Notes: generated by a model not told the origin, from the letters alone. 64,000 nucleotides of DNA from an uncultured Candidatus Saccharibacteria bacterium (GCA_964594415.1 CAZQLQ010000001.1:28850-92849), one strand, 5' to 3'. Shown: positions 2-21,764, counted from the stretch's first letter. Made by a program: numbers and translations.

Positions 2-415
2 GGGGACATAGATCCGTCGCTTATATTTTATTTGATGGAAGAAATGAATATTTCTGCTGAAGAAGTAACAGCGCTTCTTAATAAGAAAAGTGGTTTGCTT
101 GGCATCTCTGGAATTAGCAATGATATTCGTCCTATCGAAGAAGCAGCTGAAAAAGGCGACAAAAGAGCACAGCTCGCGCTTGATATGTTTATCTATGCGG
201 TAAAAAAATTTATGGGATCTTTTATATTCATTATGGGGGGAGTGGATGCAATTATCTTTACTGCCGGTATAGGTGAGAACGATCCTTATGTAAGAGCGGA
301 AGTTACAAGTGATTTAGAATTTTTGAAGGAAAAACCTGAGATTATGGTAATTCCTACAAACGAAGAATTGATGATTGCTGTTCTTACTAATGAAGTAATA
401 ACAACAGCTAAATAA
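2..415 (+). CDS. ackA: acetate kinase, C-terminal part (5' end lies outside the window)
   Basis: The frame is open from base 2: [41 protein letters not shown] matches the C-terminal ASKHA fold and conserved motifs of acetate/propionate kinases. Confidence 0.8.
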
Positions 416-3768: not shown

Positions 3769-4287
3769 ATGTCAGAAGAAACAAAGACACCACAAGAATC
3801 AAGAGATATTACGACAATTCTAATTGTTGCAGCCATCATTATTTTGGCTTGTATTATCGGTTTTGCATGGAATAAATCAAATAAGGACGAAGAAGCGAAT
3901 GCAAATACCACCACTACGACTATTGTAGAGACAGCAAAAGATGCAGGCGCAATGGGATCAAATGAAATCAGCATAACATCCGATAACTTTTCTGAGAAAG
4001 TAGAGAAGTCAGATAAGCTTGTTGTTGTTGATATGTTTATGCCTTCCTGTCCGCATTGCAAAGATTACGCTCCTAACTTTACAGCTGTCGCCGATGAATA
4101 TTCTGGAAAAGCAGTCGTATTTGGCAAAATGGATCTTTCGGTAGCTTCTAATAATAAATTTGCAAATGATATGGGGATTAACAGTGTTCCAACAACTTTG
4201 ATCTACAAAGATGGCAGTCAAGTGTCAAAAATGGTTGGGTCAAAAACCCCTGATGAGCTAAAGGCAGAGATTGGTAAATATCTTTAA
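3769..4287 (+). CDS. membrane-anchored thioredoxin-family protein (CPHC active site)
   Basis: An N-terminal TM helix, a Thr-rich linker, then a thioredoxin fold with FMPSCPHCKDYAP. Confidence 0.7.
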   Translation: MSEETKTPQESRDITTILIVAAIIILACIIGFAWNKSNKDEEANANTTTTTIVETAKDAGAMGSNEISITSDNFSEKVEKSDKLVVVDMFMPSCPHCKDYAPNFTAVADEYSGKAVVFGKMDLSVASNNKFANDMGINSVPTTLIYKDGSQVSKMVGSKTPDELKAEIGKYL

Positions 4288-4816: not shown

Positions 4817-6565
4817 ATGTCAAGCTCAGAAAAGGTTTTTTCCCCAAAGAATATTTTTGAATTGTTCTTGAATAGCGCGGAAAAATATCATAAGAAGGAA
4901 GCGCTTCGATATAAGACAGGACATTATTATGAACATTTGAGATACGAAGACTTAAAGAATGAGGTAATTTCCTTAGCAGTATCTTTAAGAAAAATGGGGC
5001 TTAAAAAAGGAGACAGGGTAATCTTGTTTTCTGAGAATAGGCCAGAATGGGTAATTTGTGATTTAGCATTTGCAGCAATCGGAGTAGTAAACGTTCCTGT
5101 TCATGTCGTTCTCTCGGTGCCTCAGTTTGTAGATATAATTAATGAAATAGAGCCGAAGGTTTTGTTTTTCTCTGGAAACAGTTCCTTGGAAAAAATCTTA
5201 GAGGCTTATAAACTGATAAACAGAATTCCTTGTACGATCTCCTATGAAAAGATTAGTTCTGAAAGAATTAGCAATTTAATCTTCTTTAAAGAGCTTATTT
5301 CGCATAAACCTTCAAAAAAAGAGGAACTGTCAGTAATAGAGCATTCTGGAGAGGTAGGGCCTACTGATCTTATTAGTATTACTTACACTTCGGGGTCTAC
5401 CGGACATCCGAAAGGCGTTAAGCTAACCCACGGGAACATAATTGAAAATATTAAATCAATAATGGATTCCTATCAAGATGATATAAAGCCAGAGGATAGG
5501 CTCTTTTCCGTTTTGCCATTGTCGCACATATTTGAAAGGACTGCGGGATATTATGTGCCATTTTGTTATGGTGCGAGTATATCTTATTGTATTGATTTAA
5601 CTGACTTTTCAAATGAGATTAAAGATATTAGGCCTACTATAATTCTTGCTGTTCCGAGACTTTTTGAAAAAATGTATGATCAAATATTAATGAAGGCAGA
5701 AGCAAATATTCTTTCAAAAATTTTATTTCGATATGCTATTTACGTTAGAACTAAAAATAGAAACAGGGTTCTTGTTGATGCGTTTGACAAATTGGTTTTT
5801 AGCAAAATTAGAAAAAACTTGGGTGGAGAGATTAGATTTTTTGTTTCAGGTGGCGCACCACTCTCACAAGAATTAGCTGAGTTTTTTGAAAAAGTAGGTC
5901 TAATTATTTTAGAAGGGTATGGACTCACTGAAACATCTCCGGTCATAGCTAGTACCAGACTAAGAGATTACCGTTTCGGGACTGTGGGCCCTGTTGTTTC
6001 GGGAGTAGATATTAGTTTCGGTAGAAACAGCGAGATCTTTGTTAAAGGGCCAAATGTATTTAGTGGATATATAAATGAAGATGATAATAAGACTTGCTTT
6101 GTTGACGGCTGGTTTAGAACAGGAGATCTTGGGCATCTCGATAGGGGAGGATGCCTAGTAATTACTGGGAGAAGGAAGGAAATGATCGTTCTTTCTACAG
6201 GGAAAAAGGTAATACCAACGACAGTAGAGGATGCCCTCGAGGATAGTGTTTATATAGAACAAGCATTTGTCTGGGGGGAAGGAAAGAAACATATTTGTGC
6301 TTTAATCGTCCCTAATTTTGAGGCGCTAAGTAGTAAGTTTAAAAAACCTACACACGAGTTAGTAGGGAATAAGGCCGTAAACTCTCTTGTCGCACTTGAA
6401 GTAAAAGAAAGAACCAAGGACTTGGCTTCTTACGAAAAAGTTAACAAGTTTGAGGTTATCAGTAATCCCTTTACCATTGATAACGGTGAACTTACTCCCA
6501 CAATGAAGCTAAGAAGGCACGTAATATATAAAAGATACAGTGACCTGATCGAAGAAATGTATTAG
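4817..6565 (+). CDS. AMP-dependent synthetase / long-chain fatty acid--CoA ligase
   Basis: The YTSGSTGHPKGV AMP-binding motif and 582 aa overall architecture match FadD-like ligases. Confidence 0.8.
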   Translation: MSSSEKVFSPKNIFELFLNSAEKYHKKEALRYKTGHYYEHLRYEDLKNEVISLAVSLRKMGLKKGDRVILFSENRPEWVICDLAFAAIGVVNVPVHVVLSVPQFVDIINEIEPKVLFFSGNSSLEKILEAYKLINRIPCTISYEKISSERISNLIFFKELISHKPSKKEELSVIEHSGEVGPTDLISITYTSGSTGHPKGVKLTHGNIIENIKSIMDSYQDDIKPEDRLFSVLPLSHIFERTAGYYVPFCYGASISYCIDLTDFSNEIKDIRPTIILAVPRLFEKMYDQILMKAEANILSKILFRYAIYVRTKNRNRVLVDAFDKLVFSKIRKNLGGEIRFFVSGGAPLSQELAEFFEKVGLIILEGYGLTETSPVIASTRLRDYRFGTVGPVVSGVDISFGRNSEIFVKGPNVFSGYINEDDNKTCFVDGWFRTGDLGHLDRGGCLVITGRRKEMIVLSTGKKVIPTTVEDALEDSVYIEQAFVWGEGKKHICALIVPNFEALSSKFKKPTHELVGNKAVNSLVALEVKERTKDLASYEKVNKFEVISNPFTIDNGELTPTMKLRRHVIYKRYSDLIEEMY

Positions 6566-10213: not shown

Positions 10214-12895
10214 GTGATAATGGAGGGTATTTATTTAACAGTTTTTGTTAGTTTGATAAACTTTATTCTAGGAATAATTATTTACATTCGGAACAGAAAG
10301 TCACCGGTAAATGTTTCTTTTGCTCTAACTGTTTTTTCTATAGTTTGTTGGACGATTTTTAATCATTTTGCTAATCAGCAAAACGATATGGCATTGCTTC
10401 TTACACGATTAACTATTATTTCTGGGCATTTAATAGCGTTTTTCTTATTCTTTTTCTTAAGGTCTTTTTTTAATTATAAGTTTAAAGAAGTAATTATATA
10501 TGGGGTGGAACTTTTGACTGCTACTAGTATTCTTCTTTCGATAACGCCGTTTTATGCTGAAGGGGTCAAATACATCCCAACTGGAACCGGAGTAACTTAT
10601 GGACCATTGATTATGGGATATTTTCTTACACTTTCGTTACTGATTATACTCAACGTCTTTGTTTTAGTGAAAGGTTACGTTTTGGCCGAGGGAACCTTGA
10701 GGAGTCAAGCCAAGTTTGTATTATTTGGAATAATATTGAGTTTATTTTTTGCAACCATAACTAACCTTTTAATACCGGTTATTTACAAGAGTCAACAATA
10801 TTCTCAGCTAGGTCCAGTATTCACAGTCTTCTTTGTTAGTTTTATTTTTTATGCCATTATAAAACATAGGCTCATGGATATTCGTTTAGTCGTTGCGAGG
10901 TCGTTATCTTATGCAGCACTACTGCTTATATTAGCTGTGTTTTACGCTACGGGCATTCTTGGCCTAGAGAGAATTATTTTCCCGAACTCCTCTGGCAGTA
11001 TCTCTATATATCAAGCTGCTTTTAGAATATCACTTACTGCTATAATTGCCTTCAGCTTTCAGCCGATAAAAAATTGGGTAACGGAAAGAACTGATAGAAT
11101 ATTTTTTAAGGGTCAATATAATTCTGAAGAGCTTTTGTCTGTTCTCTCACATGTTTTGAGTTCATCGATAGTTTTGATAGAACTTATCTACAAGGTTACA
11201 GATATTCTAATCAAAGAAATGCGAGTATCTCGTAGCATGTTTGTTCTTTTGGAAAACGAAAATAAGATATATACAACGCAGCTGAATGGTTATAAAAAAT
11301 CGATAAAAATAGAACCGAAGGATGTTTATATTTTAGCAAATCAACCAATGTTGATACTTAGTGAGCTTGAATATAATTCAAGAATCAAGAGCATTCTTGA
11401 TAAATACGATGGGGAGCTCTCTCTTCCACTAAAAACCGACAAAGGGCTCTTGGGAGTGTGGATTCTGGGGGAGAAAAACTCTGGAGAATCATATAGTCAG
11501 CAAGACTATCAGATTTTAGAAATATTAATACCAGAAATCGCAGTTGCTATAGAAAACGCAAAAGCTTACGAAGAAATCAGCGCTTTCAACAAGACGCTTA
11601 AGCAGGAAATCGAACATGCTACTCATAAACTAGAAATCCAGAATAGCGAGTTGATAAAAACGGGTCGTCAGCTTGAGGATCTGGTTAACTTTCTACCTGA
11701 TGCTACCTTTGCTATCGATACCAAAGGATGCGTAATTATCTGGAACAAGATGATGGAAGAGCTGACAGGCACTACTGCAGAGTCGATAATCGGCAAGGGT
11801 AATCGTAGATTTGCACATAGCTTTGGCTACAAAAAAGAGCTAACTCTTGCTGAACAGATATTACAGGGGAGCTTAGTAAAAAATGATCATTATAGAAGTA
11901 TAAGGAGAGAGGGAGACTCATTGTACGCTGAAGTTTATTTTTCTAACCTTAATGGCAACAAGGCATTCTTGGGAGCGAAGGCAGCTCCTTTGTATGATCA
12001 GGATCGAAATGTAGTTGGCGCAATAGAATCTCTGCGCGATATCTCGGAGATAAAAAAAGTCGAAAAAATACTTAGAAAGAGCAACGAGGAGTTACGTAAG
12101 ATCGATCTGGCAAAAGATGACTTTATCTCTATGGCCTCACATCAGCTTAGGACCCCAATTACTGCCATAAAAGGGTATCTTTCTATGCTTATTGAAGGCG
12201 ATGCCGGAGAGGTTAAGATTAGTCAATATGATTTTATTTTGGAAGCATATAGGGCCAGCAATCGCATGACCGGTCTAGTAAATGATCTTTTGAATGTTTC
12301 ACGAATGGAGGCTGGTAGATTCTTTCTAGAAGTAAATGAGGTTGATATTGACTCTATCATCCAAGAAGAGATGAAACAGCTTGAGGGAACAATAAGGGAG
12401 AAGGGGCTTTACTTTAGATACAAAAAGGGGAAAAATGTTCCCTCCGTTTCTGCTGACAAAACTAAGATACGGCAAGTTATAATGAATTTTATTGACAACT
12501 CGGTTTACTATACTAGAAAAGGTGGAATTACAGTTGAACTATATAAAGAGGGTGACGGCGTAGTTTTTATGGTTTCGGATACGGGAATAGGCGTTCCAAA
12601 AAATCAGCAATCCGGATTGTTTCAGAAATTCTATCGTGCCGATAACGCGAAGAATACACGTCCTGATGGAACCGGTCTCGGATTATTTCTAGCGAAAAAA
12701 GTTATTGAGAGCCATAGCGGTAAGATAATATTCAAATCTACTGAGGGGGTTGGATCAACGTTTGGATTTAAGATACCAATAAAGAATATGGCGAAAAAGT
12801 TTTCGGTAGTTATGCCAGAAGTTTCAAGCTTAGGAACAGCTATCTCTCAGGAGGCAACAAGGCAAAATTCTGATTTGGTAAAAAAGGAAAATTGA
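10214..12895 (+). CDS. multi-TM sensor histidine kinase with a PAS domain
   Basis: An N-terminal ~7-TM region, then a PAS segment (FAIDTKGCVIIWNKMMEELTG), then HisKA DDFISMASHQLRTPITAIKGY, then an HATPase_c G-box. Confidence 0.85.
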   Translation: MIMEGIYLTVFVSLINFILGIIIYIRNRKSPVNVSFALTVFSIVCWTIFNHFANQQNDMALLLTRLTIISGHLIAFFLFFFLRSFFNYKFKEVIIYGVELLTATSILLSITPFYAEGVKYIPTGTGVTYGPLIMGYFLTLSLLIILNVFVLVKGYVLAEGTLRSQAKFVLFGIILSLFFATITNLLIPVIYKSQQYSQLGPVFTVFFVSFIFYAIIKHRLMDIRLVVARSLSYAALLLILAVFYATGILGLERIIFPNSSGSISIYQAAFRISLTAIIAFSFQPIKNWVTERTDRIFFKGQYNSEELLSVLSHVLSSSIVLIELIYKVTDILIKEMRVSRSMFVLLENENKIYTTQLNGYKKSIKIEPKDVYILANQPMLILSELEYNSRIKSILDKYDGELSLPLKTDKGLLGVWILGEKNSGESYSQQDYQILEILIPEIAVAIENAKAYEEISAFNKTLKQEIEHATHKLEIQNSELIKTGRQLEDLVNFLPDATFAIDTKGCVIIWNKMMEELTGTTAESIIGKGNRRFAHSFGYKKELTLAEQILQGSLVKNDHYRSIRREGDSLYAEVYFSNLNGNKAFLGAKAAPLYDQDRNVVGAIESLRDISEIKKVEKILRKSNEELRKIDLAKDDFISMASHQLRTPITAIKGYLSMLIEGDAGEVKISQYDFILEAYRASNRMTGLVNDLLNVSRMEAGRFFLEVNEVDIDSIIQEEMKQLEGTIREKGLYFRYKKGKNVPSVSADKTKIRQVIMNFIDNSVYYTRKGGITVELYKEGDGVVFMVSDTGIGVPKNQQSGLFQKFYRADNAKNTRPDGTGLGLFLAKKVIESHSGKIIFKSTEGVGSTFGFKIPIKNMAKKFSVVMPEVSSLGTAISQEATRQNSDLVKKEN

Positions 12896-12933
12896 AATAA
12901 AATAATTAAAACAACAAAGCGGAGGGTTAAACA

Positions 12934-14139
12934 ATGAAAAAGTTAAGGATATATGAAGCGATTACTTTATGTTTAATTGTAATAGCTGGTATAATGGTGG
13001 CTTTCGGATACACAATGGCTAGCGATAGTGGATCGTCTTCACAGGGCTCGGCTATTTATACTTCTGAATATATAGAAACACTAAATGAGCCGTATATTAT
13101 TAGTCCTACTACGGGTTCAACAATCTATGGGGAACAGCTAAATGTAAAGATTTATGCACCAAACTCACTTACGGGTAGTGGCCATAGTCAGATTTTTAAT
13201 ATAATCAACTCTAGTACGCTTACGCCGATGCTCACTAGAGAAGAACAACTAGAAAAAAATGAATATGGTGTAATAATCTTTCCAACGATAGGGCTAGCAA
13301 ATTTCCCTGATGGTGCTTATTCTCTCAGAGTTGAGCTTTCTTATCCTGACCCATATAACACTACAATTCTTATTTCTAGAAATGTCGAGCTGGATTTTAT
13401 GGTTTCTCATACAACAATTTCTACAAGTACTACAACCACTACGAAGAATATTGATACTAACACCAGTAACACAACTGTAACCACTAGAAGTACTGCTGTT
13501 TTGGCGCCGAAGCCGACCACTACAACGACAACAAAGCCCCCTATTTCTATAGTTGATGAGCAGCTTAAGGCGACTAACAATAGTAACTCCGAATATATAG
13601 GTCTTAGCATTAAAGAGGTTCAGGGCATCTTAATTAAGCAGGAAGAAGAGAAAAAACTCCCTCAGGAACTTAGGGTAGCTCCAGAAGTTACAGTTCTTAA
13701 AACTACTAATGCAGAGGTCAATATGGTAGACGATACAAAGGGAACCGTAAAATTAACAGGTAAGGCAGAGCCGAACCAATTAGTTTATTTATATATATTC
13801 TCTGAACCCATAGTAGTTTCTGTCCAGACAGACGGTAACGGAGATTGGGAATACAATTTGGATAAGGAGCTTGCGACGGGTGAACATAAAGTATATGTTG
13901 CTGTAAAGAACGATGATAGCACAGTAAAAGCTAAAAGTTCAGCATTCAGTTTTATTATTGGTCAAGCAATCGCTGCCTCTCCAACACAAAATCAAAACGC
14001 AGCTAATGCAAATAGTGCGAACTATCTCTATTACTACATTATGTTTGCTGTTTCTATTGTTACGTTAATTGTCTCAATGATTTTCTTTGTATTAACTAAG
14101 AAGAAAATAAAACAGCATGCACTTCAACTTCAAGGTTAA
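12934..14139 (+). CDS. Thr-rich surface protein with N- and C-terminal TM anchors
   Basis: An N-terminal TM, poly-Thr linkers (TTTTTK), and a C-terminal hydrophobic helix followed by KKKIK. Confidence 0.5.
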   Translation: MKKLRIYEAITLCLIVIAGIMVAFGYTMASDSGSSSQGSAIYTSEYIETLNEPYIISPTTGSTIYGEQLNVKIYAPNSLTGSGHSQIFNIINSSTLTPMLTREEQLEKNEYGVIIFPTIGLANFPDGAYSLRVELSYPDPYNTTILISRNVELDFMVSHTTISTSTTTTTKNIDTNTSNTTVTTRSTAVLAPKPTTTTTTKPPISIVDEQLKATNNSNSEYIGLSIKEVQGILIKQEEEKKLPQELRVAPEVTVLKTTNAEVNMVDDTKGTVKLTGKAEPNQLVYLYIFSEPIVVSVQTDGNGDWEYNLDKELATGEHKVYVAVKNDDSTVKAKSSAFSFIIGQAIAASPTQNQNAANANSANYLYYYIMFAVSIVTLIVSMIFFVLTKKKIKQHALQLQG

Positions 14140-15490
14140 CTCAGAATTCCTTACAGACTACAAACAGCTGATTTTTAGTATTGTAATCATCATGCTAATC
14201 CCGGCTCTGATTGTATTTAATACTTATTATATTGTTACCAAAATGCAGGAAAATATGGATGTTGAACTTCGTGATAAGGCGATAATGGCAGCACAAGGAT
14301 TGAATGTATCTCTTATTAACAATCTTGAAGATAAAGAAGAAATCAAATCTAAAATTGATGAATATTCTAAATTAACTGATAATATCAAAAAAATTACAGT
14401 AATACAGAAAGAAAACGATGATTTTAGTGTTTTAACAAACCTTGGGACCGAAGCTGAGGTTATTGACGATGATGTAATGAACTACTTAAGCTGGGTTGGC
14501 TCGAACCCAATTGCGAGCTTGGTAGTGTCGGATGATGACCAGGTTGTTGGAGATAAGCAGATATTTAAAGGAGAGAGGTTTTGGTCTGTAACTTTACCTC
14601 TTAAGGACAGTGAGGGCAATAAAGTCTATTTGGCAAATATTTGGGTTTCTCTAGCCGATGTAGATTCTCTAATGTCGCAAACAGTTATGGATGCAGGGAT
14701 TATCTTAGCTATATCGATAATGGTGATATTACTATTAGTTGCAAGCAATGGACAACTTTTTAAGTATTCAATTCTTTTCCAGAAACTAAAAGAGGTTGAT
14801 CAGATGAAGGACGACTTTATTTCAATTGCCTCTCACGAGCTTAGGACGCCCCTAACGGCCATAAAAGGCTATATTTCGCTAATTGAAGATGATGAAAAGA
14901 AACATAATCTTACGAAAGATCAAAGAAACAGAATGATGAACGGAATCTCAACGAGTGCGCAAAGGCTGAATGATCTAGTTTCTGATATATTAGATGTTTC
15001 GAGGATCGAACAGGACAGAGTTAAGATTGAAATGGAAAAATGTGGAATAATTGAGATCGCTCAAAAGGTAACCAATCAATTGAGTCTTCAGGCAAAAGAT
15101 AAGAAGCTTAGGTTAGTAGAAAAGTACCCTAAAAAAGAGGTTTATTCAAACTTGGATAAGACCAAGCTAGAGCAGATACTTATTAATTTGATAGGAAACT
15201 CGATAAAATATACCCTTCAAGGGGAGATAGAAGTAAGTATTACCTCGGATGCCGTTAATAATATTATAAACATTAGAGATACGGGTATTGGGATGAACGA
15301 AGATGAAAGAAAGAAGCTGTTTACAAAGTTTTATCGTGTTCAAAGTGAGGAAACTAGAGAGGTAGTTGGTACGGGTCTTGGGCTTTGGATTACAAAACAG
15401 CTTGTCGAAACTATGGGCGGAAAAATTACCGTCGATAGTATAAAAAATGTAGGAACTCAATTTACCGTAATATTCCCAATCTATAAATAA
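14117..15490 (+). CDS. sensor histidine kinase (periplasmic sensor domain between two TMs)
   Basis: HisKA DDFISIASHELRTPLTAIKGY and an HATPase_c (DTGIGM..GTGLGL). Confidence 0.85.
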   Translation: MHFNFKVNSEFLTDYKQLIFSIVIIMLIPALIVFNTYYIVTKMQENMDVELRDKAIMAAQGLNVSLINNLEDKEEIKSKIDEYSKLTDNIKKITVIQKENDDFSVLTNLGTEAEVIDDDVMNYLSWVGSNPIASLVVSDDDQVVGDKQIFKGERFWSVTLPLKDSEGNKVYLANIWVSLADVDSLMSQTVMDAGIILAISIMVILLLVASNGQLFKYSILFQKLKEVDQMKDDFISIASHELRTPLTAIKGYISLIEDDEKKHNLTKDQRNRMMNGISTSAQRLNDLVSDILDVSRIEQDRVKIEMEKCGIIEIAQKVTNQLSLQAKDKKLRLVEKYPKKEVYSNLDKTKLEQILINLIGNSIKYTLQGEIEVSITSDAVNNIINIRDTGIGMNEDERKKLFTKFYRVQSEETREVVGTGLGLWITKQLVETMGGKITVDSIKNVGTQFTVIFPIYK

Positions 15491-18835: not shown

Positions 18836-19168
18836 TTAAAGTTTTTGAATTAGGTCAAACCAGATAACTTTCACAGTAGTCGAAGGTCCGACATCTGTTT
18901 GATAATATTTGCTGTAAGTTTTGTACATTTCTTCATTCGATTCAAATGTCTCGTGTCCCAACTTGTCTTGTGCGTCCAAATCCACAAAAGATTTTTCAAT
19001 CACTTTTGTTATTTGTGCGTTAGCGAAGTGCCTTAGCGTTATGAACTCCCTTAACTCAATAACATCGCCTACGGTTAAATTTTTATCGTCGAAAAGCCGC
19101 CAGGTTGAATTTTTTTCACCTGAGAGAACTAATGGTATTAAGTAGCTGCGAAATTTAACTATTTTCAT
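18836..19168 (-). CDS. ASCH-domain (PUA-like) protein
   Basis: MKIVKFRSYLIPLVLSGEKNSTWRLFDD..GDVIEL is typical of the ASCH/YqfB-like fold. The longer track ORF reaching 19456 overlaps tRNA-like repeats, so I trimmed it to the internal ATG at 19166-19168. Confidence 0.6.
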   Translation of the reverse strand: MKIVKFRSYLIPLVLSGEKNSTWRLFDDKNLTVGDVIELREFITLRHFANAQITKVIEKSFVDLDAQDKLGHETFESNEEMYKTYSKYYQTDVGPSTTVKVIWFDLIQKL

Positions 19169-19240
19169 TATTCTCAAATAGTAACAGAAAATTATTATAT
19201 AGAAAAATATAATTAGTTCTGTACTTTTTAGAACGGTTAA

Positions 19241-19470
19241 GTCGTGGGAGTAGCGGCAAGCCGCTATCACCGTTATCAAATTAACTTCTTTTAATATCAC
19301 TTTTTTATTTTTGCTTTTATCTAACTTGTTATTTATGTTCACGACTGGGGTTCTAAGCCCCGGATCTACAGAAACAAAAACTCCACCGAAGTGGAGTCCT
19401 TGTTTCTGGCAGTCCCAAGGGGAGTCGCTGGCTTGCCAACTTCTCACCGCTATCAAATCAACTTAACTAT
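19241..19470 (-). repeat. decayed tandem copies of the tRNA-Glu 3' end plus its terminator module
   Basis: 19416-19436 is identical to tRNA-Glu 3' positions 19596-19616 (tggcagtcccaaggggagtcg). It is followed, in minus sense, by the hairpin GGACTCCAC-TTCG-GTGGAGT-TTTTTGTTT. A more degraded copy lies near 19241-19290 (..gatagcggcttgccgctactcccacgac). Confidence 0.6.
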
Positions 19471-19595
19471 GCTAATTTCTTGATTGTGCTATCTATTTTA
19501 CGTGTAAAAACATGCTATTTCTGTTCACTACAGGGGTTCGCCATCCCCTGAAACTAAAAAGACCGCGATCTACGCAAGGTATATCTCGGCCTTTT

Positions 19596-19670
19596 TGGCA
19601 GTCCCAAGGGGAGTCGAACCCCTGTTACCAGGATGAAAACCTGGCGTCCTAACCACTAGACGATGGGACC
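19596..19670 (-). tRNA. tRNA-Glu (anticodon TTC)
   Basis: The reverse complement folds as a 75-nt cloverleaf: GGTCCCA..anticodon loop TTTTCAT..T-arm AGGGG-TTCGACT-CCCCT..TGGGACT-G-CCA. Confidence 0.88.
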
Positions 19671-19796
19671 ATAATTTAATAGGATTTATTAACTTGAAAA
19701 TTATAGCAGATTTAGTTGTTAATTTCAATATTTTACTTTCGTTATAACTTTGAAAAAATCCTTTAATTTTTTTTTGGTAAAGCATAAAATTAATAG

Positions 19797-21764
19797 ATGA
19801 GGAGGATGTCTATGGGAGAAGAACAAAATGAAGTTCTGGTAAAGCTGAATTTAATATCTGATAGATTGGATTCTCTTGAAGGGCGGATTTCTTTGCTAGA
19901 AAAGGATAGTAATGGCAAGGTTAACGAACCTATACCTCAAAATGAATTGGCTATGAATTCATCAAATGGTGAAAAATTGGAGAGCCATAAAAAGCAGAAT
20001 AGCATTCTTGATAGGCAAATAAGCGCTGGCGGGTGTATATCAATGATAGCTGCCATAATTTTGGTTCCGATGTTTTTATCGTCTTATACCCTAAGAGGCC
20101 TAGCTCTGCCGGTATTATTAATTTTAGGTTATCTTGTTTTTAAAGATTTAAAGTCGCAAGGCTCTTTTAAAACGACCCAAAAAATAGCATCTTACGAGCC
20201 AGATAGGGTTGAGAGAGAGGTTGCTATTGACAGTCAAAAACCAAAGGAAAGCTTCGAAGTTCAGCTTGGACAACATTTCTTTAGTAAATTAGGGATTGTG
20301 GCTCTAGTAATAGGTATAGCTTTATTCTTAATTTATTCGCTTCAATATTTTGAAGCAATGGGAAAGGTTTGTCTTGGTTATCTCTCTTCATTAGTCTTGA
20401 TCACCTTTGGCTATTTTCTTGAAAAAAAATATTCAAGATACGGACAACTACTTTTAGGAGGGGGTGTAGCTGTTACGTATTTTACAACTTATGCTGCACA
20501 TTTTTTCCCAGTTACAAAAATTATAAATAACCAAACCACTGCTCTTGGACTACTTACGTTAATTAGCTTGTCTTATTTGCTCTATATGTTGCGTTACAAA
20601 TCAGAAATAATGGCAGGGATTGCTCTGCTTTTAGTTTTCTTAACTGCAAATCTTGGAGATATAAAATCTTTCTCATTGGTAATGTTAATGATTTTTCTGA
20701 CTGTTGCAGTGATTATTTCTTCGGTTAAGAAATGGAAATTTAATTTGCTTCTTTCATTGGTACTAAACTACTTAACTGTTTTTAGGTGGATTGTTGACTC
20801 AAGCGGATATCCCATTCCCATAGACCAGTTTACTTTTATCCTGTCAATCATTACCATAAGCTACTCGCTATTTTCTCTCGGGGTTTATTTTGTTTATTCC
20901 TCTAGTGAAGGCGTTGAAGCAGAAAACGAAAAAGAAAGTACAGAAGTCATTGCTTTTACGATAATCAACTCAGTTATTTATTACGGATTTTTAGCTGCTA
21001 TATTTGATGCAAACTATCTAGAAGTAAACCAGCCTTTGATGTTATCTTTTAGTATTTTAAATATAGTACTTGCCTTTTTGTCGAGGTTTTTCAATATGAA
21101 GAAAAGTTCTGCAAAGGCATATTTAGGCATTGCAACCGTTTCAATGTTCGTATATATTTCTCTTGCGTTTTCTGATTTGAATTTAGTAGTTGGTTGGTTG
21201 TCTCTTGGAATGATTTACATGATATACGGGTTAATACTAGGGACGATACGTACCAGAGCCGTTGGAATGTTCATCATTGTGGCTTCATTTGTCGCTTTAG
21301 TTATTTCATTTTGGAATATCGAAGAAACCATTTTTAGGCTTACCTTGTTCGGCTTTGCAGCTCTTTTTGAAATATTAAGTCTTTTATTCTTGAATGCTAA
21401 ATTAAAAAATAGTGCCGGGGACTCCACCCTATATGACAGTTACTTACAAAATATTTTAGCAAGTTCTTCTGTTGTATCATTAGCTCTTATACCATGTTAC
21501 TTGGAATCTAAAGAATTTCTTACATTGTATTGGGGTATAATAGCCTTTGTTGTTGCTATTTTGGGTTTTGTATTCAATGATAAAACTTTTAGAAGATCCG
21601 GCTTGATTTTGTTGCTAATTACGGTTTTGAGATTGTTTGTAGTAGATTTGTCTAGTATGGATCCAATATTGAAAATAATTTCATTTTTAGTTTTGGGAGT
21701 AATCTTACTGGCTATTTCATTTGGATATACTAAGTATAAAGACGAAATAAGGAGATACTTATGA
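19797..21764 (+). CDS. large polytopic membrane protein with an N-terminal coiled coil (DUF2339-like?)
   Basis: 655 aa with more than 15 predicted TM helices. No catalytic motifs. Confidence 0.5.
   Translation: MRRMSMGEEQNEVLVKLNLISDRLDSLEGRISLLEKDSNGKVNEPIPQNELAMNSSNGEKLESHKKQNSILDRQISAGGCISMIAAIILVPMFLSSYTLRGLALPVLLILGYLVFKDLKSQGSFKTTQKIASYEPDRVEREVAIDSQKPKESFEVQLGQHFFSKLGIVALVIGIALFLIYSLQYFEAMGKVCLGYLSSLVLITFGYFLEKKYSRYGQLLLGGGVAVTYFTTYAAHFFPVTKIINNQTTALGLLTLISLSYLLYMLRYKSEIMAGIALLLVFLTANLGDIKSFSLVMLMIFLTVAVIISSVKKWKFNLLLSLVLNYLTVFRWIVDSSGYPIPIDQFTFILSIITISYSLFSLGVYFVYSSSEGVEAENEKESTEVIAFTIINSVIYYGFLAAIFDANYLEVNQPLMLSFSILNIVLAFLSRFFNMKKSSAKAYLGIATVSMFVYISLAFSDLNLVVGWLSLGMIYMIYGLILGTIRTRAVGMFIIVASFVALVISFWNIEETIFRLTLFGFAALFEILSLLFLNAKLKNSAGDSTLYDSYLQNILASSSVVSLALIPCYLESKEFLTLYWGIIAFVVAILGFVFNDKTFRRSGLILLLITVLRLFVVDLSSMDPILKIISFLVLGVILLAISFGYTKYKDEIRRYL

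Follow-up and report, generated by a model that had tools for sequence, protein, structure and literature searches.

The 3′ end of a tRNA-Glu gene is repeated exactly, and in direct orientation, downstream of the gene in a 64-kb window of Candidatus Saccharibacteria DNA (the window being the whole 64,000-nt stretch that was analysed). The repeated block runs from T-loop residue C56 to the CCA, each copy is followed by a terminator of its own, and homologous modules are present at other tRNA-Glu loci. We read the repeats, with a probability of about 0.5, as att-type direct repeats produced by site-specific recombination at the T-loop, which would bound miniature, integrase-less, CIME-like modules that stand in tandem and are now decaying. 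The window modules are best classed as a miniature, integrase-less form of the well-known tRNA att-repeat/accretion phenomenon, forming a family in Patescibacteria.

Partial tRNA copies routinely mark integrated islands; here the modules that they bound are ~100 times smaller than any island described, with no integrase nearby. Tied to tRNA-Glu genes, these modules form a conserved family that spans Patescibacteria, a phylum in which little is known of mobile elements. Active modules would constitute a MITE-like class for tyrosine-recombinase elements and would promote local rearrangement in very small genomes by exchanging terminator cassettes and possibly inverting tRNA genes. Even as dead scars, the modules would point to an integration hotspot at tRNA-Glu in this lineage, and annotators would have reason not to label fragments of this sort as pseudo-tRNAs or small RNAs.

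Repeat architecture downstream of tRNA-Glu

The tRNA-Glu gene was called on the minus strand by ARAGORN and by Rfam alike, in agreement with the sequence-only reading of this locus (tRNA-Glu, anticodon TTC), and it is the single tRNA of the window's module region (ARAGORN; Rfam at E ≤ 10). The array downstream of it is ordered tRNA–core1–(T1–hp2–box1–spacer–box2)–core2–(T2–hp2′–box1′–spacer–box2′)–core3 remnant, the two bracketed units being modules M1 and M2. Its features and immediate context are as follows:

19797–21764, divergent: DUF2339 membrane-protein gene, upstream of tRNA-Glu
19700–19728, minus strand: sigma-70-like tRNA-Glu promoter, TTGAAA-17-TGnTATAAT, 11/12 match with extended −10
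19596–19670, minus strand: tRNA-Glu(UUC), CCA encoded (ARAGORN; Rfam tRNA, 64 bits)
19596–19616, minus strand: core1, 21 nt from T-loop C56 to CCA, within the tRNA; the att-like repeat unit
19556–19595, minus strand: T1 ('termB' cassette), long hairpin and T-run (−16.3 kcal/mol, z −3.8)
19531–19550, minus strand: hp2, hairpin CAGGGG-ATGGCGAA-CCCCTG, with the same stem as the tRNA T-stem
19513–19528, minus strand: box1, GTGAACAGAAATAGCA, conserved in M2, L015 and L031
19465–19512, minus strand: M1 spacer, AT-rich and variable, unconserved relative to M2 or relatives
19444–19464, minus strand: box2, AAGTTGATTTGATAGCGGTGA, 19/21 identical to M2, with TGATAGCGGTRAGA also in L031
19427–19440, minus strand: short hairpin GTTGGC/GCCAGC abutting core2; M2 has a different hairpin in the same place
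19407–19427, minus strand: core2, exact 21-nt duplicate of the tRNA 3′ end, attR-like
19369–19408, minus strand: T2 ('termD' cassette), 18-bp stem including CCA, and T-run (−27.6 kcal/mol, z −7.8)
19345–19363, minus strand: hp2′ of M2, CCGGGG-CTTAGAA-CCCCAG
19327–19342, minus strand: box1′ of M2, GTGAACATAAATAACA
19267–19287, minus strand: box2′ of M2, AAGTTAATTTGATAACGGTGA
19235–19266, minus strand: hairpin TAGCGGC/GCCGCTA and degenerate core3 remnant GCTACTCCCACGACTTAACC
18836–19168, minus strand: ASCH-domain protein gene, the first gene downstream of the array, outside the modules

The core 21-mer CGACTCCCCTTGGGACTGCCA occurs exactly twice in the window (shuffle expectation 0), and the two copies with their flanks are identical at 24 of 25 positions. 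They are spaced 189 nt apart, both are intact, and only ~165 nt of non-coding DNA, with no genes, separates them. Re-alignment of the tRNA-Glu end with the downstream copy upheld the 21/21 identity that had been noticed at the outset, at 19407–19427 and not at 19416–19436 (~9 nt off). The 64-kb window holds no further copy of the core, even when three mismatches are allowed. Similarity of the core2 region to the tRNA is lost 5′ of C56, and, because the neighbouring module sequence is only 50–70% identical, the boundary of the core is sharp and the core itself is either conserved or recent.

In both modules the core copy is followed by a strong hairpin with a T-run and then by a GGGG..CCCC hairpin, as first described. 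The two terminators are no more alike than shuffled sequence (z 0.9) and are different cassettes: the arrangement of a tRNA end with a terminator behind it occurs twice, as first proposed, but the terminators themselves are analogous and not homologous. An element that inserts into the 3′ part of a tRNA has to bring a fresh 3′ end and would profit from bringing a terminator as well, which accounts for the unrelated terminator after each core.

Aligned over their ~180 nt, M1 and M2 form a mosaic. Specifically, the cores are 21/21 identical, hp2 plus box1 (GTGAACAKAAATARCA) is 70% identical (z 7.1) and box2 (AAGTTRATTTGATARCGGTGA) matches at 19/21 positions (90%; z 8.1), while terminators, AT-rich spacers and the short pre-core hairpins have no likeness above shuffled sequence. 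This pattern bears on an unlikely alternative to recombination, namely in-situ tandem duplication of a ~185-nt unit, from the T-loop to the downstream spacer, by slippage or unequal exchange at microhomology and with subsequent drift. M1 and M2 are collinear and have similar periods (189 and 177 nt), as such a duplication would leave them, but a perfect core beside partly conserved boxes and unrelated terminators and spacers is unlike the outcome of duplication followed by uniform drift.

The core copy most distant from the tRNA is the most decayed. For the third copy proposed in this region (19235–19287), box2′ and the adjoining hairpin hold up as positional homologues, but similarity to the core covers only ~10 nt. 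The segment GCC-GCTACTCCC agrees with the box2/core junction at 12 of 13 aligned positions; taken alone this match is weak (p ~ 0.07), so the third copy is a positional remnant and not a recognisable core. For core3, no match was found in the window with ≤5 edits, and Tandem Repeats Finder reported no array, the copies being too diverged.

Several smaller features lie within or resemble the modules. The opposite strand of M1 hp2 is a 20/26 inverted near-copy of tRNA positions ~47–72 (window 19530–19555 against 19600–19625), covering the variable loop through the T-arm (ACAGGGGTTCG..TCCCCT..ACT), and hp2′ of M2 is a weaker version of it. Four WTAGC motifs (AAATAGCA, AGATAGCA, AATTAGCA and TGATAGCG) stand 17–26 nt apart in M1 (19444–19530, minus strand); considered as arm-type sites, they gave a post-hoc shuffle p of 2e-4, but are unconserved in L015 and carry little weight. 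An AMP-binding (acyl-CoA synthetase-like) gene contains, at 6477–6510 on the plus strand, the segment TTGATAACGGTGA...TACTCCCAC, which matches box2′ of M2 and, past the hairpin that the segment lacks, the core3 remnant; the BLAST E-value of the 13-mer TTGATAACGGTGA alone (6477–6489) is 0.095, so this is probably a chance match and was set aside. Core2 was also considered, on the opposite strand, as a retroelement primer-binding site for tRNA-Glu, and this was set aside, reverse transcriptase being absent nearby.

Homologous modules and empty sites at other tRNA-Glu loci

Loci of tRNA-Glu(CUC) in related bacteria were found by a metagenome scan with the tRNA 3′ end, and 14 Patescibacteria loci (the window, L012, L014, L015, L016, L017, L018, L019, L022, L025, L029, L031, L032 and L034) were compared for a downstream copy of the last 20 nt of each locus's own tRNA. 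An exact downstream core, 96–170 nt past the tRNA, is present at five of the 14 (the window, L016, L018, L019 and L025), and these five represent four different core variants, including a CTCC T-stem in L019 and a G73 discriminator in the window. One further locus (L031) has a downstream core with two mismatches, two (L015 and L022) have a core split by a GC-rich hairpin insertion at the T-stem/acceptor junction, and six (L012, L014, L017, L029, L032 and L034) have no second core. At every Patescibacteria locus bearing a downstream copy, similarity to the tRNA begins inside the T-loop.

The survey also speaks to a decaying tandem tRNA-Glu array, which had been offered as the other possible origin of the copies and in which each downstream copy would have lost its 5′ two-thirds. 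The direct orientation and the ~180–190-nt spacing do resemble tRNA arrays, with each copy keeping a terminator, but two tRNA-Glu genes in tandem occur at 0 of the 13 related loci, similarity ends abruptly at C56 with nothing tRNA-like 5′ of it, and independent lineages would each have to lose the same part. We regard this origin as largely refuted and give it very little probability.

Sites that lack the modules were identified by synteny. The two nearest DUF2339 relatives are only 39–42% identical, and one of them, L014, keeps the order histidine kinase, tRNA-Glu(UUC), DUF2339. The tRNA of L014 is followed by one terminator and then by the next gene, an empty site, and L012 is arranged likewise. 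Thioredoxin-reductase homologues, whose source names mark the organism as Patescibacteria-like, defined a second syntenic series, comprising GreA, response regulator, CAP, thioredoxin reductase, DUF5679, tRNA-Glu(CUC), peptidase S11 and PAS-histidine kinase.

The module parts recur at these loci in different combinations. L015 has the T1 cassette, hp2 and box1 in common with the window, at 88% identity over 156 nt including the tRNA, and the two agree at 95.6% over a 45-nt stretch that takes in T2 and the last 14 nt of core2. L015 and L031, which also carries box1 and box2, have their modules at the thioredoxin-reductase-linked tRNA-Glu(CUC) locus, which is non-orthologous to the DUF2339-linked UUC locus of the window. 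T1-homologous cassettes are present in L015, L016, L018 and L022, and L022 has two near-identical copies of this T1-type ('termB') terminator. In L016, L018, L022 and L025, a different, GC-rich body of ~90 nt lies between the terminator and core2. L016 and L018 have flanking genes that are 96% identical and the same module body, with their terminator cassettes swapped. Across lineages, the 90 nt downstream of the tRNA are 59–88% identical, and the 90 nt upstream are mostly at shuffle level.

Some of these observations are of the kind that duplication would leave. The doubled termB terminator of L022 is one; another is a locus in a Holophagaceae MAG, described below, where a simple duplication of ~205 nt seems to have taken in the terminator and a further ~45 nt; and neither the window nor any related locus yielded an integrase. 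However, the T-loop boundary recurs in lineages with differing module bodies, the same cassettes stand at non-orthologous tRNA-Glu loci in different orders, GC-rich and apparently foreign DNA lies between the cores in L016, and core2 is an exact match to the tRNA in each of four lineage-specific variants. Recombination at the core accounts better than duplication with drift, or than a decaying tRNA array, for the recurrent boundary, for the empty sites and for the cassette mosaic. It is likewise favoured by the presence of modules at tRNA-Glu genes that are not orthologous, by the apparently foreign DNA of L016 and by the decay of some downstream cores.

Three side observations concern the gene neighbourhoods. 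Compared with L014:3–1616, the window has, at 10214–15490, ~6.7 kb of additional genes between the histidine kinase and tRNA-Glu, encoding an Ig-like protein, a second histidine kinase, a prepilin-like protein and several unknowns, with no island signatures; 12.9–19.6 kb was considered as a larger island relative to L014 and rejected, having no far-end core, GC shift or integrase. In L016, positions 1290–2050 form a 60–65% GC segment within a 40–47% GC contig and contain a 189-aa ORF with no Pfam or PHROG match; the segment sits between core2 and a degenerate core3 (GTGACTCGGTCTACCA), after which comes the terminator cassette found immediately behind the tRNA in L018. Finally, tRNA-Glu(CUC) has one orientation between DUF5679 and peptidase S11 in L018, L015, L031, L034 and L036 and the opposite one in L016, L019, L022, L025, L029 and L032. 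L032 and L034 share gene order, yet their tRNA-Glu(CUC) genes are opposite in orientation; the unit containing the gene has apparently been inverted at this position time and again.

Proposed recombination at the T-loop and its known counterparts

A block from the T-loop to the 3′ end of a tRNA is a documented att core type of tRNA-targeting integrases, and mycobacteriophage Ms6, which integrates at tRNA-Ala, has a core of 26 nt (PMC1762012). Att sites at this position correspond to the T-loop sublocation in the classification of Williams 2002, as that work is cited in PMC1762012 and PMC9897764. Integrated elements usually have a partial tRNA gene as their attR (PMC9897764), and tandem att-repeat arrays, including integrase-less CIMEs, are known downstream of ssrA and tRNA genes (PMC3146451, PMC5704250). 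Of the two origins first offered for the copies, scars of repeated integration and excision are the better supported, by the T-loop boundary and by the empty sites in relatives, although no integrase was found.

In the arrangement that we envisage, an incoming module would bring a replacement tRNA 3′ end (C56 to CCA) together with its own terminator and would shift the previous 3′ end and terminator downstream. M1 and M2, which are related, non-coding, integrase-less and ~165 nt long, now stand in tandem. The conserved boxes beside the cores are best read as possible remains of attP arms. The window-type modules have conserved primary-sequence boxes and no conserved RNA fold, which fits protein-binding DNA, and protein-binding arm sites are what the boxes would be. 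As remnants of attP arms, the boxes would make the modules either CIME-like mini-elements or, alternatively, the outcome of unequal exchange between cores, and only a recombinase acting in trans would be able to move them. The maker was probably a tyrosine-type recombinase. Because no integrase was found and the modules are only 115–190 nt long, the recombination mechanism is one that we infer.

Two features sit less comfortably with an att origin. The modules, at 115–190 nt, are far smaller than any described integrative element. In addition, T1 directly follows the tRNA in most lineages and so could be the native terminator, which misfits a strict order of events with the newest element nearest the tRNA.

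Searches for a recombinase used phmmer with a single query, the bona fide tRNA-Glu-associated integrase of L007, and Pfam on neighbouring ORFs. Neither yielded a tyrosine recombinase in the 64-kb window, in keeping with the earlier remark that no integrase is present now; phmmer with the L007 query found no integrase within ~4–5 kb of any Patescibacteria tRNA-Glu locus, and PF00589 is absent from the Pfam lists of the window neighbours and of the related loci. Scans of viral collections with module, terminator-cassette and core-junction motifs yielded no full-length parent element. With the 20-nt core, the viral scan matched only phage tRNA-Glu/tRNA-Gln gene clusters, which were rejected as att sites. 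Neither viral contigs nor 36 loci contained a larger element with box1, box2, the T1-type cassette or the GC-rich module of the relatives. The window itself has no compositional break, no GC anomaly and no far-end core.

The closest described counterparts are elements with attL and attR at the T-loop, such as Ms6. As in those elements, the direct repeat spans the tRNA from T-loop to 3′ end (21–25 nt here), the intact tRNA and a partial copy mark opposite ends, and relatives have empty sites. Unlike them, the window modules have no integrase and no coding cargo, with ~165 nt between repeats, begin with a terminator, and belong to a family conserved across Patescibacteria tRNA-Glu loci.

The second counterpart is tandem accretion with CIMEs, as in the ICESt1-related elements of Streptococcus thermophilus and the tandem ssrA islands of Dehalococcoides (PMC5704250, PMC3146451). 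The likeness lies in integrase-less, att-flanked segments standing in tandem downstream of a tRNA or tmRNA gene, in repeats that are progressively decayed and in arrays that differ between strains. Known CIMEs, however, are kilobases long and demonstrable deletion derivatives of identified ICEs or IMEs, whereas the modules here are ~100 times smaller and neither parent element nor helper integrase was found for those of the window. The window modules share with CIMEs the flanking by attL- and attR-like repeats without integration or transfer genes, but are not recognisable deletion derivatives of an ICE, IME or prophage.

Smallness, the lack of an integrase and the presumed dependence on a recombinase encoded elsewhere also recall IMEX, the integrative elements that exploit host Xer recombinases. 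Those elements target dif, whereas the window modules adjoin a tRNA gene.

Partial tRNA-Glu copies were also seen outside Patescibacteria. A Desulfomonilaceae MAG and another MAG have ordinary tRNA-Glu att repeats that start from the anticodon stem, with an integrase adjoining the tRNA. In the Desulfomonilaceae MAG (L004, L005, L009, L010 and L011), tRNA-Glu(CUC) and four partial copies from the anticodon stem are distributed over two contigs, and L005 has a weak integrase homologue, which suggests several islands, or a tandem set, of the ordinary type. In a Holophagaceae MAG, of an unrelated GC-rich phylum (L006:6493–6860), a partial copy ~195 nt after tRNA-Glu(CUC) begins in the T-loop and has two differences from the tRNA, and the terminator and ~45 nt beyond it are also duplicated, so that the layout equals that of the window.

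Possible cassette activity and RNA-level function

The match of core2 to the tRNA of its own locus invites a stronger form of the recombination reading, in which the modules are living. They would then be a Patescibacteria family of miniature (115–190 nt), integrase-less, "attP-only" cassettes carrying a spare tRNA-Glu 3′ end and a terminator, and would cycle by means of a recombinase encoded elsewhere. Repeated excision and re-integration would maintain the match, since the two 3′ ends would change places in every cycle and both would come under selection, so that the downstream core would stay identical to the host tRNA 3′ end across the four variants. A recent origin within each lineage would be expected to give the same match, and we hold the living-cassette form to be improbable. 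In a variant of it, the cassette would also encode a structured RNA whose terminus imitates the tRNA-Glu 3′ end.

A different explanation, and in our view a quite improbable one, is that the modules function as RNA or in cis within the tRNA-Glu transcription unit, for example as a read-through or processed small RNA that ends in an exact tRNA 3′-end mimic and a terminator. The mimic would comprise the 3′ strand of the T-stem, the 3′ strand of the acceptor and the CCA; the RNA might serve as a decoy or substrate for tRNA 3′-end enzymes, or in the role of insulating tandem terminators. The identity of core2 to the host tRNA 3′ end in five lineages, across all four core variants, speaks for such a function, as do the conservation of the region downstream of the tRNA beside a randomised upstream region and the conservation of T2 with the adjoining end of core2 between the window and L015. 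The entire 371-nt region folds with a z of −5.1. The relatives' GC-rich module folds into a multi-branch structure with two compensatory hairpin pairs, one change in each of its two hairpins (2/31 pairs, from 4 sequences only); the long-range pairs of this body are invariant and hence uninformative on structure.

Other results point away from an RNA. No promoter-like site lies within M1 or M2 on the minus strand, the window-type modules have no conserved structure, and no Rfam family was found (window region at E ≤ 10; L015, L016 and L018 at E ≤ 1), the matches at gathering and permissive thresholds being the tRNA and chance microRNA-like matches to the T2 hairpin. Furthermore, core2 is interrupted in L015 and L022, mutated in L031 and absent at six of the 14 loci, which indicates that it is dispensable. 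A small RNA able to pair with the anticodon loop of the tRNA (GGAUGAGAAC in L022) was rejected as a candidate, because from locus to locus the motif does not change along with the anticodon. Under recombination at the core, too, the compensatory changes in the relatives' GC-rich body hint at a function beyond that of a scar, and together with the strong conservation of T2 they leave room for an RNA-level or cis function.

A functional precedent for sequence of this kind is the 3′ external transcribed spacer of a tRNA, as in the E. coli 3′ETS-leuZ sponge. The likeness is that of a conserved sequence directly downstream of a tRNA in the same transcription unit. The 3′ETS spacers lie upstream of the terminator and have no copy of the tRNA 3′ end, whereas the window modules lie beyond a strong terminator.

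Two further observations concern relatives. On a single 581,949-bp contig, the tRNA-Glu(UUC) and tRNA-Glu(CUC) genes of L012 and L029 are identical except for the anticodon base, which suggests concerted evolution or a recent duplication of both genes. In L015 (~300–325, minus strand) and in L022 (downstream of the tRNA at 4179), core2 is split at the same point, between the 3′ strand of the T-stem and the 3′ strand of the acceptor, by a GC-rich hairpin insert (CCTGCCCGCC...). Similar hairpins (CCCGCCTG...GTCGGGCAGG) occur at two further places nearby in L022, which suggests that the inserts are a small REP/MITE-like element.
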